Positions 21,898 to 43,100 of a DNA stretch of 57,016 bases are shown piece by piece. A model generated the notes under the pieces. It saw only the letters and a program-made list of their open reading frames with translations, was not told where the DNA came from and did no database searches. The position numbers and the translations under genes were made by a program. Numbering within the stretch: the first letter of the stretch is position 1; the number at the start of each line of letters is the position of its first letter. Origin of the DNA: a virus (Duplodnaviria > Caudoviricetes); IMG/VR virus record IMGVR_UViG_3300033076_000232, positions 1-57,016 of that record. One strand, 5' to 3'.

Positions 21898-22857
21898 ATG
21901 GCACACTTAATCGCAAACACAATCTCCGGCAAAGCAGCAATGGCCTACGTTGGTGAGACCCCATGGCATGGTCTTGGCCAGCAGTTGACCAAGGACTCCA
22001 CCATTGAAACCTGGGCCGAGGAATCTGGCCTTGACTTCCAATTGGCTACAGCCGATGTGCAGTTCACTCCTCCAGCCAGCGTGTGGAACGGCTTCAAGGC
22101 TCAGGCCCTACCTTATGACGGCAAGAAAGTTATGTACCGCACCGACAGCAACATGCCTTTAGGCTTGGTGTCTAGTCAGTACAAGATTGTGCAGCCCATC
22201 GAGGTGTTGGAATTCTTCCGCGACATGGTCGGCAGTATTGCCCACCTCGAAACAGCCGGCGTCCTGCGTAATGGCGCGCATTACTGGGCCCTCGCCAAGA
22301 TGGATGGCGAGTTCAACATTGCAGGCGACAAGGTTAATCAATATCTCTTATTGGCCAGCTCCGCTGATGGCTCTCTGGCCACTCAGGCCCGCCTGACCAG
22401 CGTCCGCGTTGTATGCAATAACACTTTGCAGCTTGCACAGCGCGGCAAGGCCAACGTAAGTGTTCGTCATAACTCTATCTTCAAGCCCGAAGCCATCAAG
22501 GCTGAGTTGGCCAACAGCAACGAGGCCTTCAAAACCTTCGAGCAAACTGCCAAGGCTTTGGCATCTATCAAACTCGGTTCCGCCAAGGCTCAGAGCATCT
22601 TCACATCTATCCTCGGCGGTGATGAAAAGAACCCCTCACGTGCTGCAGCACGAGCCTTGGCTCTTTTTGAAGGTGCAGGCATCGGCGCTGAGTTGGAATC
22701 TGCCAAAGGTACAGCATGGGGCGCTTTGAATGCCGTGACTCAGCTGATGGATTGGGAAACAGCCCGCACCGGCGATGCTCGCTTGGCCAATGCTTGGTTC
22801 GGCGGCGGTGTTAATGTCAAGCAGCAAGCCGTTGAGGCCTTGTTGGCCTTGGCGTAA
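21898..22857 (+). CDS. DUF932 / phage-plasmid-like protein (TIGR03299 type)
   Basis: MAYVGETPWHGLG, ETAG.L..G, VRVVCNNTL, GTAWGALNAVT motifs. Confidence 0.88.
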   Translation: MAHLIANTISGKAAMAYVGETPWHGLGQQLTKDSTIETWAEESGLDFQLATADVQFTPPASVWNGFKAQALPYDGKKVMYRTDSNMPLGLVSSQYKIVQPIEVLEFFRDMVGSIAHLETAGVLRNGAHYWALAKMDGEFNIAGDKVNQYLLLASSADGSLATQARLTSVRVVCNNTLQLAQRGKANVSVRHNSIFKPEAIKAELANSNEAFKTFEQTAKALASIKLGSAKAQSIFTSILGGDEKNPSRAAARALALFEGAGIGAELESAKGTAWGALNAVTQLMDWETARTGDARLANAWFGGGVNVKQQAVEALLALA

Positions 22858-23687: not shown

Positions 23688-23931
23688 ACATGACTACATC
23701 TTGGATCACATGGGCCTTGACAATTGGCAAGAAGAATGGGGCGATGGCGATATACTTCGCAACATTGTTGTTGAGTATACTGTCGCTCGCGATGCTACTC
23801 ACAATGAGCCGGCCGAATTTGATTTTTGCGTTACCTTGGATGGCGTAGACGTTACCGATACGCTCAATGGCGCAAACAGAGAAGCATTTGAATCACTGAT
23901 GCGCAAAGAATACTATGACCGCAAATACTAA
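23677..23931 (+). CDS. Acidic hypothetical protein
   Basis: ATG at 23677 after AGGT; fills the operon gap. Confidence 0.6.
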   Translation: MQTEHDYILDHMGLDNWQEEWGDGDILRNIVVEYTVARDATHNEPAEFDFCVTLDGVDVTDTLNGANREAFESLMRKEYYDRKY

Positions 23932-24352
23932 TCACACCATGCAAATGACCAACTCAGAAAAAGTATTGGCATTCCGTCGCAAGATGGGCCTGCCCTTATC
24001 AAACACACCAACCTTGCTCACACCCGAGCAATCCAGTTACTTTGCTCGCTTCATCATGGAAGAGCTTAGTGAGTACCTTCGTGCTTGTGAGGAGAATAGC
24101 CTTGTTGACGCTGCCGATGCTTTGGTTGATCTTTGCTACGTCACAATGGGCTGTGCACATGCTATGGGCTTACCTTTTGATCAGCTTTTTAATGTGGTGC
24201 ATGAGGCCAACATGAACAAAGAGCCCGCCAATGACTACATCAGGTCGGTGCGCGGCTCTCAGTACGACGTTGTCAAGCCTATTGGTTGGCAAGCCCCCGA
24301 GGCCATGATGTTGGCCATCATTCAAACCGAGCAACAGAAAGCAAAGCCATGA
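23915..24352 (+). CDS. MazG-like / PRA-PH-like nucleotide pyrophosphohydrolase
   Basis: EELSE...DALVDLCYV...VHEANMNK...VKP.GW.AP motif set. Confidence 0.82.
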   Translation: MTANTNHTMQMTNSEKVLAFRRKMGLPLSNTPTLLTPEQSSYFARFIMEELSEYLRACEENSLVDAADALVDLCYVTMGCAHAMGLPFDQLFNVVHEANMNKEPANDYIRSVRGSQYDVVKPIGWQAPEAMMLAIIQTEQQKAKP

Positions 24353-25571: not shown

Positions 25572-27392
25572 ATGAAACCTGTTTTTCTTGATTTTGAAAC
25601 CATGGCTATTGGCCCAAGGCCGGATTATCCTCCGGTTCCAGTTGGCTTGGCCGTCTACGACCCTGAAGGTGAATACCCTGATGGCTACCACGCCTTTGGC
25701 CACGCCTTAGGCAACAACACCACACGCGAAGCCGTCAAGGCCATGATGGAGTTAATCTATGATAGCGGACGCGATATCTGCTTTCACAACGCTATGTTTG
25801 ACCTTGATGTTGCTGAGACTCATTTGGATGTACCCATCCCTCAGGACACTACGCGTGTGCATGATACTCTTATACTTGCTTTTCTCCATGATCCTCATGT
25901 GCAATCTTTGTCTTTGAAAGACTTGGTTGTTACGTGGAGCTTGGACACCCCTAGTGAAAGGGATGAGCTGAAGGAGTGGATCATTGCCAATGTTGAGGAG
26001 GCAAGGCGCAAAAAATCTACATGGGGTGCTTACATCTCCCGCGGCCCCGTGGAATTGGTAGGCAAGTACGCCGCAGCTGACGTGCGGCTTACCAGCAAGC
26101 TTTATGAATATCTCATCGAGCAGGTTTTACCCGCGCAGCAAGAGGCTTACCACCGTGAGGTGGCTTTGATTCCAATGTTGCTTGAAAACTCGCGGTTAGG
26201 CGTAAGGGTTGATCGTGTTGGTTTGCAAAAAGCAAAAGAGCAAGCAATAGTAGATATTGAAAAGTGTAATGTTTGGGTTCGTTCATTGTTAGGTTCTCCT
26301 GAATTGAATCTTGACAGCGACAGAGAGCTGGTCAATAGTATTTATCCCACGGAATACTGGTTGAAAGATAATGGGTGGCCTACCACGGATAAGGGGCAGC
26401 CTAAGGCCGACAAAGAAACGTTTGAAGAACTAATCACACACGCGGAGTTAAAAGATGTCCTCAGATATAGAGCCAACCTATCAACATGTTTGTCAACTTT
26501 CATTGAGCCCTGGTTACAAGCTTCTGCATCTACAGGTCGAATCTACACAAACTGGAACAGTGTACGAGGTGAACGTGGGGGTACACGAACCGGCCGACTC
26601 TCCTCAACACCCAACTTTCAAAATGCGCCTATCCGTTATCCGAAAGTTACCCTCCCCGCTACTTTGGAAGTTGCACCCCTCCCGCTCATCCGAAGCTTCA
26701 TCCTAGCTGATGAAGGCCACAAGTTGGTGGCATGTGACTTTAACGCTCAAGAGCTGCGAATCTTTGCTCACTTTGAAGGCGGCGGTTTGATGCGGCAATA
26801 CCAAGCCGATGCTCGTGCCGATCTGCATACCTACGCTGCCAAGATGATGACTGAGGCCAGTGGCCGTGAAGTGTCAAGGACTTACTCCAAAGGCGTATCA
26901 TTTGCTATTCTCTATGGCGCTGGCCCTAAGAAAATCAGTGAAATGCTTGAGGTGGATTATGAAATGGCAAAGACATTGATGGATGCATATACCACAGCGG
27001 TGGCTCCGGGCCTCAAGACGATGCAGACCACCATGCGGACAAGGTATAAATTAGGCCAACCGCTTAAAACCATTGGCGGGCGTCTAATCAAAATGGAACC
27101 GCCTAAGATCATCAATGGCCGGCTGCGTGAATTCGATTACAAAGGGGTTAACCTTTTGATTCAAGGCTCCGCGGCTGATCAGGCCAAGGCCGCCATGCTG
27201 TTGTACCAAAGCAAACGTCAAGGCAGTAGGCTTTTGCTTAGTGTTCATGATGAGTTGGTTATCTCAGCTCCTGAAGAGCATGTTGAACGTGAGGCTGAAT
27301 GCCTTACATGGTCTATGTGCAACGCACTGCAAATGGATGTGCCCATGGTCAGTGACTACAAAATTGGCAATACGTATCAGGAGGTCAAATGA
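25572..27392 (+). CDS. DNA polymerase family A with 3'-5' exonuclease
   Basis: Exo I DFET, Exo II HNAMFD, Exo III YAAAD; TGRLSS..PNFQN; motif A DFNAQELR, motif B RTYSKGVSFAILYG, motif C VHDE. Confidence 0.95.
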   Translation: MKPVFLDFETMAIGPRPDYPPVPVGLAVYDPEGEYPDGYHAFGHALGNNTTREAVKAMMELIYDSGRDICFHNAMFDLDVAETHLDVPIPQDTTRVHDTLILAFLHDPHVQSLSLKDLVVTWSLDTPSERDELKEWIIANVEEARRKKSTWGAYISRGPVELVGKYAAADVRLTSKLYEYLIEQVLPAQQEAYHREVALIPMLLENSRLGVRVDRVGLQKAKEQAIVDIEKCNVWVRSLLGSPELNLDSDRELVNSIYPTEYWLKDNGWPTTDKGQPKADKETFEELITHAELKDVLRYRANLSTCLSTFIEPWLQASASTGRIYTNWNSVRGERGGTRTGRLSSTPNFQNAPIRYPKVTLPATLEVAPLPLIRSFILADEGHKLVACDFNAQELRIFAHFEGGGLMRQYQADARADLHTYAAKMMTEASGREVSRTYSKGVSFAILYGAGPKKISEMLEVDYEMAKTLMDAYTTAVAPGLKTMQTTMRTRYKLGQPLKTIGGRLIKMEPPKIINGRLREFDYKGVNLLIQGSAADQAKAAMLLYQSKRQGSRLLLSVHDELVISAPEEHVEREAECLTWSMCNALQMDVPMVSDYKIGNTYQEVK

Positions 27393-30691: not shown

Positions 30692-30972
30692 CCAAGGTGC
30701 TGCTTGAAAAGCATTTGGAGACGTACTTCTCCGCCGCATGCAAAAAGCGTGGCCTGCTTACGTTAAAGCTGAATGTGCGCTATGCCCGTGGCTGGCCCGA
30801 TCGTATTGTGCCATTGAAAGGCGGCGGCGTGTTGTGGGTAGAACTAAAGCGGCCGGGAGGTAAAACCTCACCGCTGCAGGACAAAGTGCATAGGGATCTG
30901 GAAAAGATCGGGCACCACGTCCACATTATTGACTCTAAGGAAGGTATTGACAATGTTTTGGGAACCGCATGA
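30685..30972 (+). CDS. VRR-NUC domain nuclease
   Basis: EK.LE, GWPDR, WVELKRPGG, LQ...H motifs. Confidence 0.85.
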   Translation: MVTKVLLEKHLETYFSAACKKRGLLTLKLNVRYARGWPDRIVPLKGGGVLWVELKRPGGKTSPLQDKVHRDLEKIGHHVHIIDSKEGIDNVLGTA

Positions 30973-32350
30973 ATACCAAAAAGAAGCTGTAAAGTTTCTG
31001 GTTGAAAAAGGCTCAGCTGCGTTGTGGTTGGACCCTGGGCTTGGCAAGACGGCTATTGTTTTGTCGGCCTACCGGACTTTACGGCTCAAAGGCTTGGCCA
31101 AGAAAATGTTGGTCATTGCACCGCTCCGGCCTGTGCATGGCGTTTGGCCACCCGAGGCCAAGAAGTGGGAACAGTTTGCCGATTACTCGGTCGGCGTTTT
31201 GCATGGCGGCAACAAAGGCAAAGTGCTAAAGCAAAACCACGACATTTATGTCATTAACTTTGAAGGCCTTGGCTGGCTGTCTTCGCAACTCAATGGCAAA
31301 GATTGGCCCTTCCAGATCCTGACGGTGGATGAGATATCTTATATGAAAAACACGCAAACCCAGCGGTTTAAGACAATAAAACCTTTGCTTGATAAGTTTG
31401 ACCGCCGCTGGGGCTTAACCGGCTCTCCAGCCCCTAACAGTTTGCTTGACATTTTTGGGCCTCAGCTGATTCTGGACCAAGGTGCTACCTTTGGACCTTA
31501 CATCTCACGATTCAGAACTGAGTACTTCTACCCTTCCGGCTACGGCGGGTATGAGTGGAAGCTGCAATCCGATGGGGAGGCTAGGATCCACGCTGCCTTG
31601 GATGGAAAAGTACTTCGTATGGCAGCGCTAGACCATCTAGATTTGCCCGAGTTAACTTATAACGACATTATGGTAGATCTACCACCTAATGCCAGAAAAT
31701 TGTACGACGCCTTTGAAAACGACCTGACCGTGGAATTGAACAGTGGCAATGTAACAGCTGTCAACGCCGCCGTGGCCGTGATGAAAGGCCAACAAATTGC
31801 CAATGGTGGCTCATACTTGGATGATGACGGGAGTGGTAATGCTAGAATCACAACGCACCTTCATGATGCGAAGACTGAAGCGGTTCTTGATCTGGTCGAG
31901 GAGCTATCGGGCCAACCTTGCATCATTGGCTATCATTTCGCGCATGACCTCGAGAGGCTTAAAGCCGCCTTTCCTAATGCGCCTATCATTGGCAGTGGCG
32001 TTATTGGTCATAAACTCGATTCTATTATTGATGATTGGAACGCCGGTAAGACACCAATTCTTTTGGCTCACCCAATGTCGGCGGGTCACGGCCTTAACTT
32101 ACAAGGTACTGGTCATGCTGTCATCTGGTACTCGCTGACTTGGAGCCTTGAGGTCTATGAGCAGTTTATTCGCAGACTCTGGAGACAGGGTCAAAAGAAT
32201 CATATCGTAGTCCACCACATTATGGCCAAGGACACTGTGGATGAAGCCATTATGATGGCCATCCGCCGGAAAGATAAAACGCAGCAAACTTTATTGAATG
32301 CTGTGCGTGATTACATTAAACGTGATACAATCGAGACTGTTGATTATTGA
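30953..32350 (+). CDS. SNF2-family helicase
   Basis: DPGLGKT, VDE, GLTGSP, AGHGLNLQ, Q...RL.RQGQ. Confidence 0.9.
   Translation: MFWEPHEYQKEAVKFLVEKGSAALWLDPGLGKTAIVLSAYRTLRLKGLAKKMLVIAPLRPVHGVWPPEAKKWEQFADYSVGVLHGGNKGKVLKQNHDIYVINFEGLGWLSSQLNGKDWPFQILTVDEISYMKNTQTQRFKTIKPLLDKFDRRWGLTGSPAPNSLLDIFGPQLILDQGATFGPYISRFRTEYFYPSGYGGYEWKLQSDGEARIHAALDGKVLRMAALDHLDLPELTYNDIMVDLPPNARKLYDAFENDLTVELNSGNVTAVNAAVAVMKGQQIANGGSYLDDDGSGNARITTHLHDAKTEAVLDLVEELSGQPCIIGYHFAHDLERLKAAFPNAPIIGSGVIGHKLDSIIDDWNAGKTPILLAHPMSAGHGLNLQGTGHAVIWYSLTWSLEVYEQFIRRLWRQGQKNHIVVHHIMAKDTVDEAIMMAIRRKDKTQQTLLNAVRDYIKRDTIETVDY
32320..32331 (+). promoter_or_regulatory. Extended -10 promoter candidate ahead of the modification cluster
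   Basis: ACGTGATACAAT (TGn-TACAAT), matching ACGTGATATAAT at 35374; TTGAAAGG RBS downstream. Confidence 0.45.
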
Positions 32351-32363
32351 AAGGAATACACGA

Positions 32364-32636
32364 ATGCAACATACCCCTATTGTCGAAAGACCTAACCCTA
32401 TCCAACAGGAAGATACTGACATGTCAGAAGCTAAAACACGTGCTCGCGCAAACAAAAAAGCCATCATTACTCTTGTGACCGCCCCTAACCCAAAGCGTAA
32501 CGGCACTTTGGCACGTGAGCGTTATGAGTTGTACCGTGTTGGCATGACCGTTGCTGAGTACATTGCAGCTGGTGGCCGTTCAGGTGACGTGAACCATGAC
32601 ATTGCCGAGGGCTACATTGCCGTAGCATTGCCATGA
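32364..32636 (+). CDS. Small conserved phage protein (NPKR...GMTV.EY motif), possibly DNA-binding
   Basis: NPKRNGTLARERYELYRVGMTVAEY...D..EGYI; alternative start at 32421. Confidence 0.65.
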   Translation: MQHTPIVERPNPIQQEDTDMSEAKTRARANKKAIITLVTAPNPKRNGTLARERYELYRVGMTVAEYIAAGGRSGDVNHDIAEGYIAVALP

Positions 32637-33544
32637 ATATCTTAATTTCCGGCGTCACGGAGACGCATACCAACCATCCACAACGTGCCAGCTCTACCAA
32701 GTTTGTCTCAATCCCAGAGTTGATGGCAAATGCTTTTGGCAGGCTTGGCCACCATGTTGATCATCGTGCTGTCACGCCCGGTGAGGACCTCTCCCGATAC
32801 GATAAAGTCTTTGTGTACCTATACCCCTTGGACCACAATGCTTTAGATCCCGAAGGCGCTCTATGGGCTTTGGAAAGCCGCTTTGATGCATACATTTGCC
32901 TTGATGACTGGGCCTTCCAAAAGATCCTACCATCGTGGGAAAACAAGATTGCGCCTGAATCACTGTGTGAGCATACATGGATTGCTCCATTATTTCCATG
33001 GGGTGATACCAAGGCTATGGGCCTGCCCGTAGAAAATATCATTGCATGGGATCCAAGCCCGCTGTATGAGATGCCTGCCGTGCATCAAATGTCGTGGGAT
33101 CGCCGCAAAACAGAATGGTACAACGCCTCACTTTCAAAGGATGCACATGACTGGGCTACAGCTCAAAACCTCACATGGCCAATTCACAGCGTCGGTGGTA
33201 AGTCGCTCGGCCAGCCTAGAATCTTGGAGTCCGACGTCGTCTGGCAATATGGTTCGTATAAGGGTGTCCTTTGTCCTACGTATCGACACGCAGGCTCTGG
33301 TTGGTGGCGTGTCCGATACTTGCACGCTGCTCATGCAGGATGCGTTCTTGGTGGAGACCCCAAAGAGCTCGGAGTCATTGACCCATCATACGCTTACACA
33401 CTCCGTGAATTAGAAAACATGGATGATGAACAGCTGCAGCTAACGGCGGCGCAGCAAGCAACTTACTTGCGTGTTGCAACGCTTGAAGACACACTATCAA
33501 AACTTGAGGGTATCTTAAATGATCGTAATTCTAGAAGGGGCTGA
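32633..33544 (+). CDS. Putative GT-B fold glycosyltransferase (DNA/nucleotide modifying)
   Basis: N-terminal MNILISG...L...GHHV Rossmann start, DDW motif, C-terminal GVLCP.Y..GSGWWR.RY..A..AG donor-binding-like segment; context with kinase and TS homologue. Confidence 0.6.
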   Translation: MNILISGVTETHTNHPQRASSTKFVSIPELMANAFGRLGHHVDHRAVTPGEDLSRYDKVFVYLYPLDHNALDPEGALWALESRFDAYICLDDWAFQKILPSWENKIAPESLCEHTWIAPLFPWGDTKAMGLPVENIIAWDPSPLYEMPAVHQMSWDRRKTEWYNASLSKDAHDWATAQNLTWPIHSVGGKSLGQPRILESDVVWQYGSYKGVLCPTYRHAGSGWWRVRYLHAAHAGCVLGGDPKELGVIDPSYAYTLRELENMDDEQLQLTAAQQATYLRVATLEDTLSKLEGILNDRNSRRG

Positions 33545-34466
33545 TGGCGGGGGTAAGACTACCCTTGCTGAGACCTTGCGACAACGATTGCAAAAAGAAA
33601 AGATGACCCACGTGGTAAAGCACGGTCCTTACAAAGGTATGAATACCGAGGACCTTTGCCGTACCTATTTTCGTGGTATTACGCAGGCCTTGACCTATGA
33701 TGATCATGTCATTATGGATAGGTCATGGCTGTCCGAGCCAATCTATGGCAACGTCTATCGTAATGGTGAAAACCGAATCGATATGCCGCGCCGTAGAATG
33801 TTGGAACGTGCAGCTTTGGCTCGTGGCGTTGTGGTCATTCATTGCCAACCGGACTTTGAGGTTTGCATGCAGACATTCAAAAGCCGTATTGCCGATGAGT
33901 ACTTGGACAATATCAAGCAGTTGGAGCAAGTGTATGAAGGCTACTCAACATTGCCAATGGATACCTCTCTGCCGGTCATCACCTATGACTACACCAAAGA
34001 TGATATTGAAGAGCTATTCATCAAACTTGCAACCAAGTCAATTACAAACAAATCATCCGGTGGCGGTGCCTTTGCCGAAGGCAATACACTGATGCTTTGC
34101 GACAAGGGCCCTCGTACAAATGTCAGGTCAACCGCAGCCGTGGTGCCTTTCATTAACTTCTTGGACAATGATGGCCCTAGCCGTATGTTGGCTGAAACCT
34201 TGGAACGTGAGAATGTGCCTGAAACCAGCCTGTACTGGGTCAACACACAAACTTACCAAGGCACACCAATGGACGCCGGTTTTATCAAGCAATTAAAGCC
34301 TTCACGCATCTACGCACTTGGCAACAACGCGTATGCTTGGGCCTTGAACAACGCCGTGCCTGTGATTAAACTGCCCCCGCCTTTGTATCACATGCAGCAT
34401 TACCCCGATCAACCTTACCTTATTACGGAGTTAGACCATGGAAATTACGATTCGCAACGAGCCTGA
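33519..34466 (+). CDS. dNMP (thymidylate-type) kinase fused to a C-terminal UDG-fold-like domain
   Basis: ILEGADGGGKTT P-loop and MDRSWLSE..YG; C-terminal YWVN...KPSRIYALGNNA...LPPP pattern. Confidence 0.75.
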   Translation: MIVILEGADGGGKTTLAETLRQRLQKEKMTHVVKHGPYKGMNTEDLCRTYFRGITQALTYDDHVIMDRSWLSEPIYGNVYRNGENRIDMPRRRMLERAALARGVVVIHCQPDFEVCMQTFKSRIADEYLDNIKQLEQVYEGYSTLPMDTSLPVITYDYTKDDIEELFIKLATKSITNKSSGGGAFAEGNTLMLCDKGPRTNVRSTAAVVPFINFLDNDGPSRMLAETLERENVPETSLYWVNTQTYQGTPMDAGFIKQLKPSRIYALGNNAYAWALNNAVPVIKLPPPLYHMQHYPDQPYLITELDHGNYDSQRA

Positions 34467-35220
34467 GCTAATCAGCCTCTATAAAGTATTACACCAAATG
34501 GGCAGGTGGACAAGCCCACGCGGTGAAAAGTGCCTTGAGATTGAAAACTTTACTTACACTGTCAATCCGTTTGTAAGGTTCAACTCTTTCAAAGGCCGCA
34601 ACTTCAATGTGAAGTACCTTAAGCGCGAAATGGCTTGGTACATCAAAGCTGATCCACGTGATCTTAGCATTGCCGAGCACGCAGCTCAGTGGGGCAAGAT
34701 CGTTGCCAATGGCAAGTTAAATAGCAACTACGGCAGCTACTGGTTTGGCCCACATGGCGCCCTGCATATTGCAAAGCTGCTAACGCAGGATCCAATGTCC
34801 CGCCGAGCTGTGATTCCTATGTACGGCACTGACACTGACCATATGGATATTGAGGCAAAAGATGTTCCATGCACTCTGGCCATGGAATTCCGTATCCGCG
34901 ATGGTCGATTAAGTGTACGTGCTATCATGCGCAGCCAAGATATTCTTTGGGGCATGGCAAATGACTTGCCAACTTTCAGCTTCCTGCAGGAAATCGTGGC
35001 CAACTTGGTCGGCGCTGAGATGGGAACCTTAACAGTGTCGGTTGGATCTTTCCACGTGTATGAGTCACGCCTTCACATGTTCAACGAGATCATCAACACC
35101 AACTTGCATATTCCAGTGGAAGACGCACCGCCCCGCATTAACCGCTATGAAGCCCACATTTTGGCAGGCAAATCCATCAATCCTACTTTCGAGTTTGCAA
35201 AATGGCTATTGAACGTGTAA
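34438..35220 (+). CDS. Thymidylate-synthase-family enzyme, dCMP hydroxymethylase-like
   Basis: REMAWY, NSNYG, SRRAVI, DVPCT (catalytic Cys), MRSQDILWGMAND (Asp at the base-specificity position, as in T4 gp42), GSFHVY. Confidence 0.85.
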   Translation: MEITIRNEPELISLYKVLHQMGRWTSPRGEKCLEIENFTYTVNPFVRFNSFKGRNFNVKYLKREMAWYIKADPRDLSIAEHAAQWGKIVANGKLNSNYGSYWFGPHGALHIAKLLTQDPMSRRAVIPMYGTDTDHMDIEAKDVPCTLAMEFRIRDGRLSVRAIMRSQDILWGMANDLPTFSFLQEIVANLVGAEMGTLTVSVGSFHVYESRLHMFNEIINTNLHIPVEDAPPRINRYEAHILAGKSINPTFEFAKWLLNV

Positions 35221-35384
35221 ACTTATCATTCGCAGTTCAAAAAGAACTTAGAACTTTTGTATTCGAACTCATTCGAGATGGCTATCATATGGAGGATATA
35301 CTGACAGCATTGGCTGCTCTAAAAGTGGAAATGGCTTCGGCCATGGTTTGGCAAGATGTAATAAACCCAAAAGACGTGATATAA
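35202..35384 (+). CDS. Hypothetical protein (60 aa)
   Basis: Overlaps the end of the TS-like gene and fills the gap. Confidence 0.55.
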   Translation: MAIERVNLSFAVQKELRTFVFELIRDGYHMEDILTALAALKVEMASAMVWQDVINPKDVI

Positions 35385-35407: not shown

Positions 35408-35438
35408 CTTTGTAAATTGACTATTGAAAGGAATTGAA

Positions 35439-36146
35439 ATGAAAGCAAAAATACGCTGGACTGAACGCGAACGCGACTTGGTTATTATGACAGCCGTGGA
35501 GTATTACAACTCAGGCACTTACACGCCAATTGCAGCTTTGCGGCAAGCACAAATTGTGTTGTCGCCTGAACGCCGTCGTAGTATGCAAAGCCACTCTGCA
35601 GTGCCTGACTTGCTTAAAGAGCTTAAGGTACGCGCCATGCAGGATGTGCCAAGACGCAAGGATGTAGAAACTACCAAACCTGTGGAAATAATGCCTCCAG
35701 TGCCACAAGAAGTGGTAAAAACCGATGCACCAGTTGATCTCGTTGATCAGTTGGTGAATAGTATTACACAACGATTCATTTTGGGGCTTCGTGAAAGCCT
35801 GCAATCTGCTGTTAGAGAGCTTGAGCATGAGTTCAAAGTGGAAAAGCATAACCCAACCTATGCAGCCGCAGGCACCAAGTTGCCAAAGGTTATCATCATC
35901 GGTTTGCTAGGTGATCAGGTCCATGCTATCACCCGCGAGTTCTCTGACCGCTACGACGTAAAATGCATTGACACAGATCGTGCCATGGGTATGAACCCAC
36001 CAGATGCTGATGCCTATCTTCTTATGAAGAACTTCATCAACCATCCGCTGTACCATAAGTACCAAGCCTTCCCCAATCACGTTTTGATTGATGGTGGCAT
36101 GTCAACACTTCGCATGTGGCTTAACACTAAAGGAAAAGACCTATGA
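35439..36146 (+). CDS. Hypothetical protein (N-terminal WT..E helix motif, C-terminal DUF2325-like alpha/beta domain)
   Basis: ATG after TTGAAAGG; RWTERE; KVIIIGL...KNFINH...GGMSTL. Confidence 0.65.
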   Translation: MKAKIRWTERERDLVIMTAVEYYNSGTYTPIAALRQAQIVLSPERRRSMQSHSAVPDLLKELKVRAMQDVPRRKDVETTKPVEIMPPVPQEVVKTDAPVDLVDQLVNSITQRFILGLRESLQSAVRELEHEFKVEKHNPTYAAAGTKLPKVIIIGLLGDQVHAITREFSDRYDVKCIDTDRAMGMNPPDADAYLLMKNFINHPLYHKYQAFPNHVLIDGGMSTLRMWLNTKGKDL

Positions 36147-36349: not shown

Positions 36350-36672
36350 AGCAACCCATAGACATGGTCGAACTATCCTACAAAGATTGGGTCGATCTGC
36401 TTACCAGAACTAACCACTTGGAGTTGCTAAGCAATCCATATGATGTGTGGATTGAGGCTTTCCATGTGGGTAGTACTTTGGAGCGTAGAAACTGTGCGCA
36501 TCAAATACGCACTAGTCTCAAGCTGGTAACCCCCGAGGATTTTGATGATGACACCACCATGTCAGTCACCGACATTAAGCAAATGCAAATTGGTTTGCTT
36601 AAGAAAGTCTTGGAGATCCTAGAGCCTACCGCGCAGACCCAGGAGTCACCGATGGTGGGGGCAAAGCCATAG
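36346..36672 (+). CDS. Hypothetical protein, last gene of the + strand arm
   Basis: ATGA overlap; its 3' end overlaps the convergent gene. Confidence 0.6.
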   Translation: MKQPIDMVELSYKDWVDLLTRTNHLELLSNPYDVWIEAFHVGSTLERRNCAHQIRTSLKLVTPEDFDDDTTMSVTDIKQMQIGLLKKVLEILEPTAQTQESPMVGAKP

Positions 36673-37645
36673 GATTAGCCGTAGGCGCCACAGGCTCGTT
36701 GTACTTATCCAAACCGTACTGCGCAGCTGTGGCGCCTAAGCCTAAGGCAAGCCCAGGGATTTGCAATCCTGGAACCATGGACATCAAACCGCCTGCACCG
36801 GCCAATGCTGATAGCACCATACCCGATCGGTCGCCATTCATGTAACGTTGGTAAGCTTCATAAAAGCTAAGACCAGCTCCGGCGCCGCCTAAGGCACCAC
36901 CAACAATAGGAGACTTGGCAACACTTGCCACTTTAGCCATAGGACCTGGAGTTGCATCGGCTAAGCGCTTAGCGGCAGCAGCCTCAGCAGCTGGCATTGC
37001 TGCGTTTCTTGCAGCATTTGCATCTTCAGCTTCTCTGCCCTGTCTAATCAGTCTATCCACCAAAGACTCTTTGATTTGCCCGGGCTCGCCTGCGCTGTAG
37101 ATGTCAGGCCCAAACTTCTTGGTTAGCTTTTTGGTGACTTCGCCTTGGCCTTTACTGCGCTGATAAGCTGCAGCAGCCTCTGGTACGCCGCCTGCAATCT
37201 CTTTGTTACCGCCTGCCCAGTTTTGGTACCACTTGGTTCCTGAGGTTTGTGCCTTAGGCTGAGCCAATTGCTCTGGTGGGATACCTGCTTTAAGAAGTTC
37301 TTCATCACGTAGCTTTTGCAGCATATCTTTAATACGCTGCTCCTCCTGTAGTTTCTTAACGCCTTCAGCAGTTCGCATTTCCTGCGTTGGGAATAGCTTT
37401 GCCATGCCCTTTTGAACGAGCGGGCCGGATGCGGCACCTACGCCAGTGGCAACGGCTTTTTCTTCGCCTTGCGTCATTCCAATTTCAGGAAATAACGTGT
37501 TGGCGCGTTTGCCTGTAGCCTTCGCAGTCTTTGCAGGGCCAATTGGCGCATCAAAGAGGGGGTCGAGATGCCCTAAACCCTCACCTTGTGATGTATCCTG
37601 TTGGTCACCAAAAATAAGTGCATCCAGCTTATCATCTTTTGCCAT
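36626..37645 (-). CDS. Putative internal virion/ejection protein with a hydrophobic Gly-rich C-terminus
   Basis: GGALGGAGAG and ALAGAGG..LALGLGA segments; last gene of the structural arm. Confidence 0.55.
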   Translation of the reverse strand: MAKDDKLDALIFGDQQDTSQGEGLGHLDPLFDAPIGPAKTAKATGKRANTLFPEIGMTQGEEKAVATGVGAASGPLVQKGMAKLFPTQEMRTAEGVKKLQEEQRIKDMLQKLRDEELLKAGIPPEQLAQPKAQTSGTKWYQNWAGGNKEIAGGVPEAAAAYQRSKGQGEVTKKLTKKFGPDIYSAGEPGQIKESLVDRLIRQGREAEDANAARNAAMPAAEAAAAKRLADATPGPMAKVASVAKSPIVGGALGGAGAGLSFYEAYQRYMNGDRSGMVLSALAGAGGLMSMVPGLQIPGLALGLGATAAQYGLDKYNEPVAPTANPMALPPPSVTPGSAR

Positions 37646-37656
37646 ACATCAGCTCT

Positions 37657-39219
37657 TTAAGGGTTAAATTGGCGGAACAACTGCATCCGATAATCGGCGT
37701 AGTCCTTGTTGATCTTCTCATACACGCTGCCGGGGCTGAAGAATTGGCGTGGCGATGCTGACGGGCCAGCCTTGCTGGAGTACTGGTCATACGCGCCGTA
37801 CAAAGCTTCACGTTGCTTATTCAATAACAATTGCTGGCGTGCCCACAACTGAACTGCCCTTGATGAGTCATCAATGCTTGCCATTGGGGCTTGTAAGAGT
37901 CTTGCGTCGTTGTCGGTGGGGTTAACACCTAGCAGGCCCTTGTTGGCTTTTACGTTAGACAAGAATTCAGTCCCCAAGATGCGGCTAACATCTCGTACGG
38001 CTTGCTGATCTTCAGGCGACAGCTTAACGCGTTGCAAGAATTCTTTAACCGGCAAACCAATCCGTACGTTGTATTGACCGGCTTGAGCTTGGATGCCTTC
38101 TTGCGCTGCAGTCATCAAGCCGGAAAGCAAACCCTCATTTTGCATCATCGCAAAGATTTGTGGCTTCTTGGCAGCAATCTCATGCAATTGCTTCAAGTTA
38201 GTATTGGATGACTCCAACAGCTGTGGGGTGTAATTGACAATCTCATCGCGCTTGGCGTTGAAAACCTTGTCAGTATCTTGTACACGTTGCTTTTGAATCT
38301 CGGCTTGTGCCGCCAAAGGCACACCAGCCAGATCAGCAGGCTTACCAGCCGAAACCGGAGCTTGACCGGGTGTAGGCATTGCAGGCTGCGCTGTAACAGC
38401 TGGAGCTGCAGGCAATTGACCTGCTTGTTGCTGTGCAACTAATGGCATAACCACCGGCGCTGCTGGAGGAACACCAGGGACAGCACCGGGCATTGCTGCT
38501 GGAGCTCCGGGCAACGCACCAGTTGGTGCTGCAGGTGCTGCTGGCTTAGGCACATCAGCAAGACGTGCACCACTAGGCATCAACGCAACAACATCTGGAC
38601 CGTACTTGGCAATAAGCTCAGCCTCACCCATACCCATCTTACGATCTTCAAGGGCGTTGGTAATCTTACGCTGACCTTGCTCGGCATCAAACTTTTGTCT
38701 ATCAAGGTTAAGTTTGTCCAAGTCACTTTGCATAGTGAATGTGCCTTTGACAATCTCACCAACCTTTGGCGATAGCTGCGCAACAATAGGGTAAATCTTT
38801 GCAAGCTTGGCTGCAACATCCGGCGTTACATTGCCACTTGACAATACGCCTTCAACTTGAGCAGGCGCAACGCCTAACGTTGCTGAAAGCAATTGCAAAG
38901 CTTTGCCTTGGTTCTCTACTTCATACTTTTGGCCCGCCAACTGCGCACGCATTTGCGCAATAGGCAGCTCAGCTTCACGCTGTTTTTCTTGCTGCGCGCC
39001 AATTACACCCGCCGCTCTGCCTAAGGCTTCACCAAAATTGCCTGTGCGGCCGGGGTCTAACAGCGCAGCGCCAACTTGAAATAAGTTAGGGCCTTGTTGT
39101 GTTCTTGCTTCCAAAGCTGCAAGGGTCTTTTGAATAGCATCAAAATACTCATTCTTAGCTTGGTCATCCCCACCAATCATGAATGGGGTTGATGAAGGCA
39201 GAGCGCCTGTTGTTGCCAT
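37657..39219 (-). CDS. Putative internal virion/ejection protein
   Basis: 520 aa, helical, Q/A-rich with a Pro-Ala linker; GNFGEALG motif. Confidence 0.55.
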   Translation of the reverse strand: MATTGALPSSTPFMIGGDDQAKNEYFDAIQKTLAALEARTQQGPNLFQVGAALLDPGRTGNFGEALGRAAGVIGAQQEKQREAELPIAQMRAQLAGQKYEVENQGKALQLLSATLGVAPAQVEGVLSSGNVTPDVAAKLAKIYPIVAQLSPKVGEIVKGTFTMQSDLDKLNLDRQKFDAEQGQRKITNALEDRKMGMGEAELIAKYGPDVVALMPSGARLADVPKPAAPAAPTGALPGAPAAMPGAVPGVPPAAPVVMPLVAQQQAGQLPAAPAVTAQPAMPTPGQAPVSAGKPADLAGVPLAAQAEIQKQRVQDTDKVFNAKRDEIVNYTPQLLESSNTNLKQLHEIAAKKPQIFAMMQNEGLLSGLMTAAQEGIQAQAGQYNVRIGLPVKEFLQRVKLSPEDQQAVRDVSRILGTEFLSNVKANKGLLGVNPTDNDARLLQAPMASIDDSSRAVQLWARQQLLLNKQREALYGAYDQYSSKAGPSASPRQFFSPGSVYEKINKDYADYRMQLFRQFNP

Positions 39220-39220
39220 T

Positions 39221-40198
39221 TTAAGACTCCCACTCTAGTTGAGTAATGTCACTAGGCATGCCAACTTTGCTATCAAGCTGAAAGTTGTTCCACAGATTGG
39301 TAACCCCTGTGCCAATGGCTTTTCCAAATGGCGTATTGCTTACACCACCAATGATGGAGCCTAAGCCTGCAATCTGCTGTAATGGCGAGGCAGCGTAAGC
39401 ACCAGGAATTGGGCCTGTGTAAGTATTATCTACTGTGGTTGGCACGTTGTAGCCACGCAGTGCTTGTGCGCCCAGATTTAATGCCGTCAATGGGAACAGC
39501 TCAGCGTTCTGATTGATAGTCTGCTGCTGGCCGCCTAGTGTAGCCAATGCGTTAATGTCCGCCAAATTAGCCGCTTGGCCTGCTGTGGCAAGACTGCCAT
39601 ATTGCTGAGCTGCGTTTAGCTTTTGCGTTTGGTCAGCCTGCGCCGCGCGCAATGCTTCAGTATAACCTTGCTGCAATGCCTGTGACTGCGCAGCTTGCGT
39701 ATTTGCTAAGCCTGTGTTAATGGCTTGGCCCAGTACCTCGGCGCCACGCTTAGATCCAAATTGGCCAGTGCCAACTGCAGACGCAGTAGCCTGTGGTGCT
39801 AAGAATTGCTGAATATTCCGTTGCCCCAACGCGCCAAGTGCATCCACAACCTGCGTTGTGTAGGGGTTCATAAACTGCTCAACGCGACTTTGGCCATTAG
39901 CAATTGGCAAGCCTGTCTTTGGGTCTACAGGCTTTGCGGTAATATCGGCTTGTCCAATATTACTTGTTGCCTGCAGTGCGCGGTCAAAGTACCCGGGGTA
40001 CGTATTAGTCGTTGTTGCAGCTTTTTCAAAAGCCGCAGTTTGCAACGGCTGCGCATTTGCGTAACTTGCACCAGAGATGCCTGTCGTAACGCCTTTGGCT
40101 AAGTTGCTTAGATAATCAGTGTACCAAGACGGCGCAGAAGTTACTTGACTCTGCGTCGTGGTGATATTCGGTAGGGGATCACCTTGCATTAAACTCAT
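39221..40198 (-). CDS. Putative DNA-pilot/ejection protein
   Basis: FMNPY..QV, GQFGSKR, SPLQQIAGLG motifs; Q/A-rich. Confidence 0.6.
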   Translation of the reverse strand: MSLMQGDPLPNITTTQSQVTSAPSWYTDYLSNLAKGVTTGISGASYANAQPLQTAAFEKAATTTNTYPGYFDRALQATSNIGQADITAKPVDPKTGLPIANGQSRVEQFMNPYTTQVVDALGALGQRNIQQFLAPQATASAVGTGQFGSKRGAEVLGQAINTGLANTQAAQSQALQQGYTEALRAAQADQTQKLNAAQQYGSLATAGQAANLADINALATLGGQQQTINQNAELFPLTALNLGAQALRGYNVPTTVDNTYTGPIPGAYAASPLQQIAGLGSIIGGVSNTPFGKAIGTGVTNLWNNFQLDSKVGMPSDITQLEWES

Positions 40199-43100
40199 TT
40201 TATGCCTTTCAAATACGACAGGGGTGACTTAGCCTTTGGAGGTATTTTACCTACTGGGGCTGATCGCTTATGTTTTCTTATGCTTTCACGCATTTTATCC
40301 AAAACTAGGGCTCCAGCCTTATTTGAGCCGTTGCCCAATGCTGCAACAGTGTCAGCATCAAACACGTATTCGCCATCCGCCAACATGGCCGGAATGCTGT
40401 CCGATTGACCATCACCTGCGCCTTGCACGTAATTGCCGGTCTTTCCGGTGATAAACTCGGGAATATGTTCAACCTGACCGCCTCTAGCATACCCTGTCAG
40501 AGGACTGCCGCCTAAGTACTTTAGGCCCGACGCCGTTAAGCTGCCAGTGTCATAGCCCGGGATGACAGTGCTATTGTCATTGCCTTTTACGGGATTCCCG
40601 GGCGATGGGGTACCAGCAAGTCGTGAGCCTACAAAGTCTGTGCCCTCATCTGTAGGCGTGAATTGTGATGTTGCAGGTTGAATTCTGCCTGTCAAAACTT
40701 GCAGTAGCTTGGGGTCTACATTGGCCAGCTGTGGATAAAGTTGCGTGAGTTGTGTCATTCCAGATACGTCCTTGACTGGCGCGCCAGCCAGCATTGTAGG
40801 CGTCAAAGTTCCGGGCAACGCGCCCGTGCTTGTTGGCGTCGTGATTGCGCCTAACGCCCCAGACTGCTGTTGCGGTGTTGGCGTTGGTGTTGGCGTTGTT
40901 GGCGTTGGTGTTGGCGTTGTTGGCGTTGTTGGCGTTGTTGGCGGCGTAGTCGTAATTGTAGGCGGCACTTCAGGCGGCACAATCGTATCAGTTGTGGTAG
41001 TAACTAGAGGCGGCGTAGGCGTTGTCCCTATGGGCGTTGTAGGCAACGCGCCTGTAGGTATTGTCAGCGTTGGAAGATCAGCGTTAGTTGTTGGCGTGCT
41101 TACAACGGTTGGGTTGCTTGTAACAGTTGGTGTTGTAGTAACTGTTGGCGTTGCAGTAACTGTTGCTAACGGGTTAGTTAAGACAGTTGGGTTGCTTGTA
41201 ACCGTTGAAACCGAAGTAACATTGGCATTGGCGGCAGCAGCAGCGTCGGCAGCGGCTTTAGCATCAGCAACAGCCTTGGCATCTGCAGCGGCTTTTGCGT
41301 CGGCAGCAGCCTTGGCATCAGCGGCAGCCTTAGCTGCGGCCATTGCGGCTAAAGTACTATTTGTTGTAGACGTAGTTGTAGTTGTTACGTTGGCTGCGGT
41401 AGCCGCGTCAGCGGCAGCCTTAGCATCTGCGGCAGCCTTAGCATCTGCGGCAGCCTTAGCATCTGCAGCAGCTTTTGCGTCAGCTGCGGCCTTAGCATCT
41501 GCGGCAGCTTTTGCGTCAGCTGCGGCCTTAGCATCAGCAGCAATTTGCGCAGCAGTAGCAGCATCAGCGGCAGCTTTTGCGTCAGCAGCAGCCTTAGCAT
41601 CTGCGGCAGCCTTGGCATCAGCAGCAACTTGTGCGTCCGCGGCAGCCTTAGCAGCAGCATCTGCGGCAGCCTTAGCAGCGGCATCAGCTGAGGCTTTAGT
41701 AGCAGCATCCGCGGCAGCAGCAGCGTCGGCAGCAGCTTTAGCGTCGGCAGCGGCCTTAGCAGCAGCAGCGTCAGCTGCAATCTTGGCGTCTGCTAAAACC
41801 TTAGCGTCAGCAGCAGCTTTGGCTGCGGCGGCATCAGCAGCAACTTGAGCTGCAATGGCAGCGTCAGACGCAGCCTTGGCATCAGCGGCAGCTTTGGCAA
41901 CGGCAGCAGCTGTAGTGGCAGCTTGGGCATCAGCGGCAGCTTGCAAGGCAACATCAACTGCGGATTGGCCACTTGTAGTGGCTGCTACCGTAGCGCCTGT
42001 CCCAACTGTTGATAGCGCCCCAGTGCCGGTTGTTGCTGCAGCGCCTGTATCTGCTGCTGTTGCGCCAGCTGTTGTAGTTAATGCCCCAGTGCCGGTTGTC
42101 GCTGCAGTGCCTCCACCAACGGTTGATAGAGCGCCTGTATTGGCAGTGGCAGCAGCTGTGTTCTTTGATGCAACCGCCGCACTGACATCGGCTAGACTCA
42201 AACCAGCTTCTGCCATTGCAGCGCCAACTTCAGCCTGCGATGCGCCTGGGTGATCAGCTAACCAAGAGTTGATGCTTTCATAAACTTGATCTTGTGAGAT
42301 GTTGTTCTCTTGCGCCCATTTCATACCTGCGCTTGAAAGATCCAAGTTTGAATTGGCGTTGCCAATATTGGCCAAAGTTTGCGCGCCGGTATCGCTAACT
42401 ACAGACTGCCCTGTTGCTGCGTCAACTAATGAGGTAACATTGCCTGAGCCATCAGTGGATGCAATCCCAGACTTGCTAAGCTCTTCATTAAGTGTGGCGT
42501 TTGCCTCAGCAACAATGTTTTGAATGTTTGAAACTTCAATAGAGGATGAGGTTTTACCTGCAACAAGGCCTTCAACCACGCCTTGTGTAAGTGACTTGTT
42601 GATATTTACTGGTCGGCCTAGAGCAACATCTGTCAATACGTCGGTTGTAAACGCCTCAATAAGATCGGATGTACCTTCTTTTGTAAAGCTAGAGCCCGCC
42701 TTGGTTGTTGCCTTGCTAAGTGCATTGCTAACCTTATTGATCAGCGCCGTATCTGTAACACCGCCTGTAGCCACAGTAACCGCGGCTGCAATTTCAAATG
42801 CGGTTGTTGCCTCGGCTTCAGCTTGTGCAAGTGTTTTATTTGCCGCCAAAGCCTCACGCAGTTTATCATTATATGCAGCACCGCCGGACTCCATGGCATT
42901 CAATGCAACATCGGTGCCTACAGCAGCAAACTTGCCTGCGTACTTAAGCACTTTTATGCCTAAGCCAATTGGCAAACCTTCCTGAAGAACTTCAATTGCA
43001 GCCATATTAAGAGACTGCGGATTGTTATACACTGCTTTTACGCCTGCAACAATTTTATTGCCTAGCCCTTGCGCGTCATTGACAGCTTGAATAACATTTT

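Follow-up and report, generated by a model that had tools for sequence, protein, structure and literature searches.

We analysed the 57,016-base record IMGVR_UViG_3300033076_000232 from IMG/VR (referred to here, at its full length, as the window), a linear stretch from an uncultured phage that is estimated to be ~85% complete. At 32633-35220 it carries three genes that probably act together to place a sugar on cytosine in the phage DNA. The three open reading frames (ORFs) overlap in series on the + strand, by 26 nt between the glycosyltransferase (GT) and a kinase fusion, and by 29 nt between the kinase fusion and a thymidylate synthase (TS) homologue; from these overlaps, the genes appear to be co-transcribed. 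The fusion combines a kinase domain with a domain resembling uracil-DNA glycosylases (UDGs). An original prediction for this DNA had described three overlapping genes here, and our ORF list agrees with it exactly.

32633-33544, + strand: GT-B fold glycosyltransferase, 303 aa (fold, PHROG 14998 and gene neighbourhood)
33519-34466, + strand: kinase fusion, 315 aa, made up of the following two domains
33519-34061, + strand: YorR/Tmk-like P-loop nucleotide kinase domain, residues 1-~181 of 315 (PF02223, phrog_761)
34065-34466, + strand: mini-UDG-like domain, residues ~183-315 of the fusion, putative UDG-superfamily member (hhalign to mini-UDG proteins)
34438-35220, + strand: thymidylate-synthase-superfamily enzyme, 260 aa, predicted dCMP hydroxymethylase (PF00303, active-site residues)

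More than 100 database relatives were found for each of the three genes (120 for the GT, 113 for the kinase fusion). GT relatives of the window's clade occur on 305 IMG/VR stretches, the best 80 of which (60-99% identity) we examined. Their gene order is SNF2 helicase, small ORF, GT, kinase fusion, TS homologue. All 80 loci contain the GT, 79 the kinase fusion and 75 the TS homologue; the one missing kinase fusion and the five missing TS genes all belong to loci that end before the gene. The database relatives and the kept gene order indicate that the three ORFs are real genes and not chance ORFs. A megablast search of the operon region against 50,697 phage records gave no match, and the nearest cultured phages by DNA polymerase are Stenotrophomonas phage AXL3 and Pseudoxanthomonas phage PW916, at ~36% identity.

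The three enzymes of the operon

The TS homologue matches PF00303 (E 1.1e-18, 67.7 bits vs a cut-off of 24.3) and contains all five motifs quoted for it in the original prediction, starting at residues 63 (REMAWY), 95 (NSNYG), 142 (DVPCT), 164 (MRSQDILWGMAND) and 203 (GSFHVY). The catalytic Cys146 as well as R166, S167 and Y94 are present, and W80 on the folate side is kept (ThyA numbering). The protein scores far below the cut-offs of all NCBIfam ThyA equivalogs (best 58.7 vs 174.55). Its best matches among PDB sequences are the CMP hydroxymethylase MilA (1.1e-20) and T4 dCMP hydroxymethylase (1b49, 9.8e-13), both of which outrank the true thymidylate synthases.

We aligned the TS homologue with E. 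coli ThyA, T4 gp42, RB69 gp48 and td, the SPO1 enzyme, two sequences from Aeromonas phage Aes012, and the homologues from AXL3, Xp15 and Effie. An active-site signature was read from the alignment at ThyA positions 80/143/146/147/166/167/168/169/173/177/209:

Window TS homologue: WDCTRSQDGDY
T4 gp42: WDCTRSNDGDY
RB69 gp48 (5-hydroxy-dCMP synthase): AECTRSQNVDF
E. coli ThyA: WLCHRSCDGNY

The Asp that follows RSxDxxxGxxx in the window protein aligns with N177 of E. coli ThyA and with the Asp of T4 gp42. Position 177 is D in the window protein, T4 gp42, RB69 gp48, Xp15, Effie and AXL3, and N in ThyA, the td enzymes and the SPO1 enzyme. The window protein thus has D177, D143 and T147 where ThyA has N177, L143 and H147; it shares D143 with T4 gp42 and the SPO1 hydroxymethylase, and D169 with T4 gp42, a position at which RB69 gp48 has N. 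According to Lee et al. 2026 (PMC13326640), N177D makes the enzyme prefer dCMP, an acidic residue at 143, associated with water access, accompanies a hydroxymethyl rather than a methyl product, and D169N occurs in every 5-hydroxycytosine-making enzyme tested.

The original prediction had assigned the TS homologue to the dCMP type, which the alignment of D177 with gp42 and the MilA and gp42 matches in the PDB corroborate. It had offered a hydroxymethyl, methyl or hydroxy product: the modified dCMP stands, and hydroxymethyl is favoured among the three because L143D is present and D169 is kept. The kept D169 also argues that the enzyme is not of the 5-hydroxycytosine type. Judged by these residues, the TS homologue is best read as a dCMP hydroxymethylase (5-hydroxymethyl-dCMP (5-hm-dCMP) synthase).

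A maximum-likelihood tree of 37 rows places the window protein in a clade of 9 rows (100/99), which groups with the homologues from Xp15, Effie and RsoM2USA (97/97). ThyA, the T4-like td enzymes and RB69 td form a separate clade (100/100), and the gp42-type group lies apart (98/95). Long branches include those of RB69 gp48, SPO1, AXL3 and Forza, with RB69 gp48 far from the window clade. The TS homologue is predicted from its residues to work like gp42, and in the tree it lies outside the gp42 clade. Its closest cultured relatives are those of Xp15 and Effie (34-38% identity), two phages in which carbamoyltransferases (PF16861, PF02543) lie 1-1.5 kb from the TS gene. A metagenomic carbamoyltransferase of the Xp15/Effie kind acts on 5-hydroxymethylcytosine (5hmC), and not on 5-methylcytosine (5mC) or 5-hydroxymethyluracil (5hmU) (PMC8670742). 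As this kind of carbamoyltransferase needs 5hmC, it lends indirect support to 5hmC formation by the window TS clade.

The 315-aa fusion protein was modelled by AlphaFold2 with a predicted local distance difference test score (pLDDT) of 91.4. Its kinase domain matches PF02223 (33.8 bits, cut-off 27) and phrog_761, 'thymidylate kinase' (E 1.1e-25). The kinase profile finds the SPbeta protein YorR in the PDB (2axp/3kb2, E 1.1e-13), and Foldseek likewise ranks 3kb2 at the top (TMt 0.76), followed by Tmk and deoxynucleoside kinase structures. Invariant residues of the domain are G7, D9, G12, K13, D67, R68, E73, Y76 and R97. Assignment to the dTMP-kinase equivalog (TIGR00041) was rejected, with a score of 39.1 vs a cut-off of 83.25 over residues 1-37 only.

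The kinase domain is homologous to the Tmk-like kinase encoded beside RB69 gp48 (E 1.8e-8; hhalign 95.9% over 85 columns). An hhalign comparison with PaMx11 gp49, one validated 5-hydroxymethyldeoxyuridine (5-hmdU) DNA kinase, aligned the P-loop only (34 columns, 76.5%). Stand-alone Tmk-like kinases are encoded directly 5' of the TS gene in Xp15, Effie and Gordonia phage Forza (L179; genes 180 and 179). The deoxynucleoside monophosphate (dNMP) kinase fusion of the original prediction is therefore recovered as a nucleotide kinase (PF02223, YorR match) joined to a second domain (hhalign), and we predict the kinase domain to be a 5-hm-dCMP kinase.

The GT has no Pfam match at E<=1 and no NCBIfam match, and in PHROG it matches only phrog_14998, 'unknown function' (E 1.3e-22). 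An AlphaFold2 model built from an alignment of 43 relatives reached a mean pLDDT of 93.7 and a predicted template modelling score (pTM) of 0.90. In a Foldseek search of the PDB with this model, T4 beta-glucosyltransferase (BGT; 1j39) ranks first (E 5.7e-7), followed by VinC, SenB, PimA, BshA and the phage HY126 glycosyltransferase 9ir0, at 8-15% identity and template modelling (TM) scores of 0.4-0.6. The search returned 143 matches at E<=0.001, and all of those listed have the GT-B fold except 3luf, a response-regulator/GGDEF protein. Structural alignment of the GT with BGT gives 11-12% identity at a TM of ~0.5, and the matches in BFVD are uncharacterised viral proteins (TMq 0.81-0.85). Residues D91, D92, E199, G221-x-G-W-W-R-x-R228 and Q275 are among those invariant in the family.

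On the strength of the model, we are confident that the fold is GT-B; the original prediction had named the absence of this fold as one of the findings that would speak against it, and the fold was found, with BGT as the top match. That prediction could not match the GT to T4 alpha-glucosyltransferase (AGT) or BGT, which holds at the level of sequence and fails at the level of fold. Membership in the T4 BGT sequence family was rejected in view of the missing Pfam match and the 11-12% identity in structural alignment. A profile search of 1.84 billion cluster representatives found 867 relatives of the GT at E<=1e-3, 509 of them at E<=1e-30, compared with 2 loci in 185,579 species genomes, which makes the family essentially viral. 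Both of these loci are contigs of metagenome-assembled genomes, so we draw no inference about a host.

Genomic contexts of the GT family and the UDG-like module

A second clade of the family, ~28% identical to the window GT, is encoded on 243 stretches, the best 80 of which were examined. A TS homologue lies 1-2.3 kb from the GT in 64/80 of these loci and has the exact T4 gp42 signature in 62 of the 64. A gene for UDP-galactopyranose mutase stands directly 3' of the GT in 61/80, a gene for an NAD-dependent epimerase occurs in 23 and a C5-cytosine-methylase-like gene in 24. A UDG-like gene of 120-140 aa is placed directly 5' of the GT in 24/80, and a stand-alone kinase beside the TS gene in 3. 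Ten of the 16 loci without a TS gene have less than 700 nt of upstream sequence. The cassette, as seen for example in L103:5708-10042 and L164:5131-11294 (loci L097-L176), consists of gp42-type TS, an optional epimerase, an optional mini-UDG, GT, mutase and an optional C5-methylase-like gene. It predicts galactofuranosyl-5hmC DNA, also for the T4-like Aeromonas phages.

The GT matched 39 phage records, AXL3 not among them. Family members occur in T4-like Aeromonas phages, where genes 229 and 230 of Aes012 form a pair of GT and UDP-galactopyranose mutase in a genome that also carries a gp42-type TS. The GT-family gene adjoins a mutase gene in Erwinia phage FBB1, and an arabinose-5-phosphate isomerase gene in Morganella and Providencia T4-like phages. 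In Forza, gene 130 encodes a GT of the window's family ~20 kb from the kinase and TS genes, which suggests an hmC-type modification in Forza-like actinophages.

Fused forms were sought among 141 newly listed representatives, 22 of which have at least 450 aa; 10 of these 22 were scanned with Pfam. An N-terminal C5-cytosine DNA methylase domain was found in 8/10, and in 2 of these 8 methylase-GT proteins a canonical UDG domain lies between methylase and GT (68 and 84 bits vs 24.3). A jackhmmer search from the fused UDG domain yielded a third methylase-UDG-GT protein; it converged on 3/22 long forms, with the mini-UDGs and the kinase fusions both beyond its reach. The three triple fusions are P0237, P0255 and P0257 (753-1409 aa). 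Within their methylase domains, P0257 and P0266 carry an intein with a LAGLIDADG endonuclease, and P0234 is a tandem GT-GT protein. In P0096, P0097 and P0118 (479-485 aa) the GT profiles match the C-terminal 330 residues only, and the N-terminal extensions were not UDG-, kinase- or TS-like.

Together, the TS, mutase and methylase/UDG-fusion contexts argue that the GT family acts on cytosine derivatives in DNA and is fed by nucleoside diphosphate (NDP)-sugars. The link that the original prediction had drawn between the GT and hypermodification gains support from the association of the family with predicted dCMP hydroxymethylases in both clades (TS in 75/80 and 64/80 loci). From its fold and its genomic association, the 303-aa protein is predicted to be a DNA 5hmC glycosyltransferase, and the GT-B family, with its 867 cluster representatives, probably forms a second DNA hmC glycosyltransferase lineage.

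The C-terminal domain of the kinase fusion resembles UDGs. PF03167 UDG is matched by 7/41 members of the fusion family (best E 2e-8), and the window's own 315-aa protein has no PF03167 match at E<=1. Its domain gives a weak profile match to the type-4 UDG 8iie (E 0.073). Aligned by hhalign with the stand-alone 120-140-aa mini-UDG proteins of the second clade, it reaches 95.2% (E 2.5e-8, 114 columns), with the alignment spanning the whole domain. These stand-alone proteins match PF03167 in 11/11 cases at E<=0.1 (best 5.5e-6, mostly below the cut-off), share the motifs GxNPS and HPSP[LR]NR, and as a profile give only a weak match among PDB sequences, to the uncharacterised protein 3ikb (E 0.018). 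In the Atlas (protein language model), the domain is nearest to viral clusters of 122-137 aa, partly PF03167 (score 0.93). A hidden Markov model of the mini-UDGs detected neither the domain in the window nor the canonical UDG domains of the long fusions, and the link therefore needed profile-profile comparison together with Pfam.

In the window clade, the His of motif B is replaced by Pro (PPP, against PHP in distant members and HPSP in the mini-UDGs), which makes classical glycosylase chemistry doubtful. At the motif A position an acidic residue is kept, D where others have E. The UDG-like module thus occurs in three forms: joined to the kinase as in the window, encoded on its own next to the GT, and as part of methylase-UDG-GT proteins. 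We regard it as a genuine fourth component of such cassettes. Our leading guess is that in the window clade it serves as a DNA- or pyrimidine-binding accessory or in repair, and not as a classical uracil glycosylase. A complex prediction of the GT with residues 183-315 scored 0.00 vs a mark of 0.32, which speaks neither for nor against binding. A more far-reaching idea, possible though rather unlikely in our estimate, is that the module is an obligatory, so far undescribed third partner of the GT, which would carry out a new step on DNA and lead to a sugar not yet seen on phage DNA. Such a step could consist of flipping out or marking 5hmC for the GT, or of removing bases that are unmodified or deaminated, which would restrict packaging to modified DNA.

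The proposed pathway and its rivals

Beyond the operon, the proposed pathway draws on a MazG-like enzyme and on the replication module in which the operon sits:

23915-24352, + strand: MazG-like all-alpha NTP pyrophosphohydrolase, 145 aa (PF01503)
25572-27392: family-A DNA polymerase (replication module)
30929-32350: SNF2 helicase (replication module)

The MazG-like protein matches PF01503 PRA-PH (E 4.2e-17, 62.8 bits, cut-off 21.3) and phrog_671, 'nucleotide pyrophosphohydrolase' (E 1.7e-23); among PDB sequences it is closest to 3nl9, a putative NTP pyrophosphohydrolase, and to the MazG-like DR2231. Homologues were found in 14/80 related loci, namely those whose 6-kb flank reached far enough. 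PF01503 also co-occurs with TS homologues on contigs with modification genes (PMC8670742). Encoded 8.3 kb upstream of the operon, the enzyme is a candidate dCTPase/dUTPase, whose activity would deplete the dCTP pool and provide dCMP.

We hypothesize that the three genes and the MazG-like enzyme constitute a T4-style pathway to sugar-modified 5hmC DNA, a reading that residues, folds and neighbourhoods make reasonably probable. The MazG-like enzyme would convert dCTP to dCMP. The active-site residues of the TS homologue suggest that it would then add the methylene group of methylenetetrahydrofolate to C5 of dCMP, with attack by water giving 5-hm-dCMP. The YorR/Tmk-like kinase domain would produce 5-hm-dCDP and the host NDP kinase the triphosphate, which the phage family-A DNA polymerase would incorporate in place of C. 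In the final step, to which the fold and the neighbourhoods in two distant clades point, the GT-B enzyme would flip out 5hmC in DNA and transfer the sugar of a host NDP-sugar to the hydroxymethyl oxygen. The modification would shield the phage DNA from restriction enzymes and other nucleases.

Profile searches found no epimerase, mutase, C5-methylase or second GT homologue in the window, and no nucleotidyltransferase is present among its scanned ORFs (some small ORFs left out) in a record that is itself incomplete. The original prediction had seen no genes for sugar-nucleotide synthesis, and none appeared among these ORFs, which makes a host-derived sugar donor plausible. Its overall reading as a cytosine-hypermodification system is supported, and all three protein assignments hold.

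Several points weigh against this pathway. It is known from a metagenomic contig alone, which may lack ~15% of the genome. The ORFs scanned, again with some small ORFs left out, contain no dCMP deaminase, ThyX or dUTPase, and the substrate specificity ascribed to the MazG-like enzyme is a prediction. The product rules for L143D and D169 derive from a limited set of tested enzymes, and the window TS clade, which is distinct from that of T4 gp42, contains no tested member. The GT family has no characterised member either; in the second clade, six of the 80 loci lack a TS gene even though their upstream sequence extends for 3 kb or more, and the GT profiles did not detect the first arabinosyltransferase of RB69 in its gp45-48 region. 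Finally, the kinase could have another substrate: in RB69 and DLP3, it is the gp1-type dNMP kinase that was shown to act on modified dCMP (PMC13326640), so that even there the Tmk-like enzyme is no more than a putative kinase of the modified nucleotide.

The fusion of the kinase with a base-flipping fold, hard to explain for an enzyme of free nucleotides, raises the possibility that the protein acts on DNA. Its UDG-like domain would then flip 5hmC and its kinase phosphorylate the hydroxymethyl group, resulting either in another final base or in a phospho-intermediate for the GT. P-loop kinases that phosphorylate 5hmdU in DNA do exist (PMC8989533), and RB69 and DLP3 keep a gp1-type dNMP kinase besides the Tmk-like one (PMC13326640), so the latter need not be a dNMP kinase. 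The window kinase also matches phrog_800, 'terminase small subunit', weakly (E 0.0047), and RefSeq labels PaMx11 gp49 in the same way, a comparison of labels only. However, the alignment with PaMx11 gp49 is confined to the P-loop, whereas the Tmk/YorR match spans the whole domain, including the invariant D67-R68. The kinase stands alone without a UDG in Xp15, Effie, Forza and the three second-clade loci, and no other candidate for phosphorylating 5-hm-dCMP was seen in the window. Pfam scans of the window ORFs revealed no amino-acid:DNA transferase (aGPT-Pplase), a family whose prediction, like that of 5-HMUDK, reportedly goes back to Iyer et al. 2013. On balance, we consider a DNA kinase unlikely and retain the 5-hm-dCMP kinase in the T4-style pathway.

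We regard as quite improbable that the TS homologue is a flavin-dependent 5-hydroxy-dCMP synthase of the RB69 gp48/DLP3 gp80 type, with the GT adding a sugar to 5-hydroxycytosine (5hoC) directly. The same triad of genes makes glycosyl-5hoC in RB69, DLP3 and RL38J1 (PMC13326640), the window protein shares N177D and an acidic residue at 143 with RB69 gp48, and distant GT relatives adjoin the isomerase gene of the Morganella and Providencia phages. Nevertheless, the window protein lacks the diagnostic D169N, where all tested 5hoC producers have Asn (PMC13326640), and keeps W80, G173 and Y209, which are A, V and F in RB69 gp48; the long branch of RB69 gp48 lies far from the window clade in the tree.

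It is very improbable that the TS homologue makes 5-methyl-dCMP, as in XP12, or is an ordinary thymidylate synthase with a Tmk, and that the GT has a target other than DNA (host envelope or virion protein), as the source annotations of relatives ('thymidylate synthase', 'thymidylate kinase') would have it: the ThyA and Tmk equivalog scores are far below the cut-offs, ThyA and the td enzymes of T4-like phages and RB69 form a separate clade, and the GT family, which also occurs fused to C5-methylase and UDG domains, accompanies TS homologues in two distant clades. Phage GT-B enzymes do often modify surface polysaccharides, which we counted in favour of this explanation. We weighed it on a comparison without the XP12 dCMP methyltransferase sequence; N177D speaks against dUMP as substrate and L143D against a methyl product (PMC13326640).

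The remaining neighbours of the operon include two small ORFs that overlap its ends:

32298-32636, + strand: small conserved ORF, 112 aa as listed, probably ~90 aa from the ATG at 32364
35202-35384, + strand: 60-aa ORF with a 19-nt overlap with the end of the TS gene (no Pfam or PHROG match)

The stop codon of the first overlaps the GT start as ATGA, and a homologue lies directly 5' of the GT in 80/80 related loci (40-88% identity). It has no match in Pfam, PHROG or NCBIfam; the Atlas holds its sequence from residue 23 onward, with unnamed viral proteins as the nearest clusters. A homologue of the 60-aa ORF occurs 3' of the TS gene in some related loci (31-100% identity). Further 3' lies a 240-aa ORF (35424-36146, + strand) that is kept in many related loci (38-87% identity) and is without a Pfam, PHROG or NCBIfam match. 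Directly 3' of the operon on the opposite strand, two adjacent ORFs of 339 and 520 aa (36626-39219, - strand) are rich in Ala, Gly, Pro and Gln and have no PHROG match. The replication module opens with a DUF932 protein (21898-22857, + strand; PF06067, E 3.4e-52) and also includes a DNA-binding protein, a Cas4-like exonuclease and a VRR-NUC nuclease. The structural region contains two giant ORFs of 1764 aa (11951-17245, - strand) and 1584 aa (40195-44949, - strand), neither with a PHROG match at E<=0.001. The description of the phage as podovirus-like in the original prediction is unsupported: the scanned window ORFs yielded no tape measure, sheath or tube family, so the tail type cannot be judged.

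Comparison with known systems

Base hypermodification decides phage survival against restriction enzymes and CRISPR nucleases, and it affects the sequencing, cloning and engineering of phage DNA. The kind of system described here is already in print, for T4 as well as in PMC13326640 and bioRxiv 10.1101/2023.12.21.572611. In the literature searched (supplements excluded), we did not find the window GT family as such, its pairing with the mutase, or the mini-UDG-like partner and its kinase fusion. The interest of the locus lies mainly in this uncharacterised GT family, which could serve as a 5hmC-labelling enzyme, and in the unexplained UDG-like module that recurs with the GT and its partner genes. 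The operon comes from a large group of uncultured phages (the 305 IMG/VR loci with GT relatives). It may be among the most compact versions of the T4 strategy, as its three genes overlap and no dedicated pathway for the sugar donor was found.

In T4, the dCTPase gp56, the dCMP hydroxymethylase gp42, the dNMP kinase gp1 and the alpha- and beta-glucosyltransferases lead to glucosyl-5hmC. The predicted logic and chemistry of the window are the same, including a candidate NTP pyrophosphohydrolase. Its TS homologue equals gp42 at 10/11 active-site positions, the exception being position 168 (Q in the window, N in gp42), and BGT is the best PDB fold match of its GT, although by sequence the GT falls into the family of neither AGT nor BGT. 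The window differs from T4 in the clade of its TS homologue, in a kinase that is Tmk/YorR-like and not gp1-like, in a candidate dCTPase of the MazG/PRA-PH type, and in the UDG-like domain, which T4 lacks. A further difference from T4 is the layout: the genome measures 57 kb, and its three core genes overlap one another in a single compact operon.

DLP3, RB69 and RL38J1 encode a Tmk-like 'nucleotide kinase', a first glycosyltransferase and a TS homologue next to each other (PMC13326640, Table 1), the same triad as in the window, whose kinase is homologous to that of RB69. Their TS homologues carry D169N and use flavin to make 5hoC (PMC13326640), whereas the window protein keeps D169. These phages also encode their own NDP-sugar pathway; no such pathway turned up in the scanned ORFs of the window. 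The terms 'UDG' and 'uracil-DNA glycosylase' have 0 occurrences in the main text of PMC13326640, which reports no UDG-like domain for its clusters.

The TS homologues of Xp15 and Effie form sister clades to that of the window, and their stand-alone Tmk-like kinase lies directly 5' of the TS gene. In systems of this type, which produce 5-carbamoyloxymethylcytosine (PMC8670742), the decorating enzyme is a carbamoyltransferase and not a GT, and the UDG-like domain is missing; PRA-PH co-occurs as it does in the window. The 5-hmdU DNA kinases M6 gp54 and PaMx11 gp49 (PMC8989533) are, like the window kinase, P-loop kinases in a pyrimidine hypermodification cluster. Their partner is a helix-hairpin-helix-fold amino-acid:DNA transferase, in place of the GT and UDG-like domain of the window.

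Metaviromes have yielded GT-B DNA glycosyltransferases whose closest PDB structure is T4 BGT (E 1e-5 to 1e-7), and ~28% of the GT-B contigs carry a thymidylate synthase homologue (bioRxiv 10.1101/2023.12.21.572611). That study describes clusters of C5-methyltransferase, 5mYOX (TET) and GT genes, and the window GT family is likewise fused to C5-methylase domains. We liken the two groups by description, as the sequences of GT53, GT66 and GT94 were not part of the comparison. The main text of the study does not contain the terms 'UDG', 'glycosylase' or 'kinase'.

AXL3 (gp27-gp31; L003) is the only cultured phage found here that combines a kinase-UDG fusion beside a TS homologue with restriction data. 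Its fusion gene overlaps the gene of a TS homologue with D177, D143 and D169, as in the window, and an NTP pyrophosphohydrolase is encoded alongside. It differs in that its fetched 13-kb locus contains no GT of the window family by GT profile, that its TS homologue has Ile at position 80 and sits in a different clade, where it shares a long branch with the SPO1 enzyme, and that it also has a dCMP deaminase, ThyX and a methyltransferase. Of 37 restriction enzymes tried on AXL3 DNA, 35 failed to cut it, and the two that did have A/T-only sites (PMC7504290). By analogy, AXL3 lends biological plausibility to the pathway proposed for the window.

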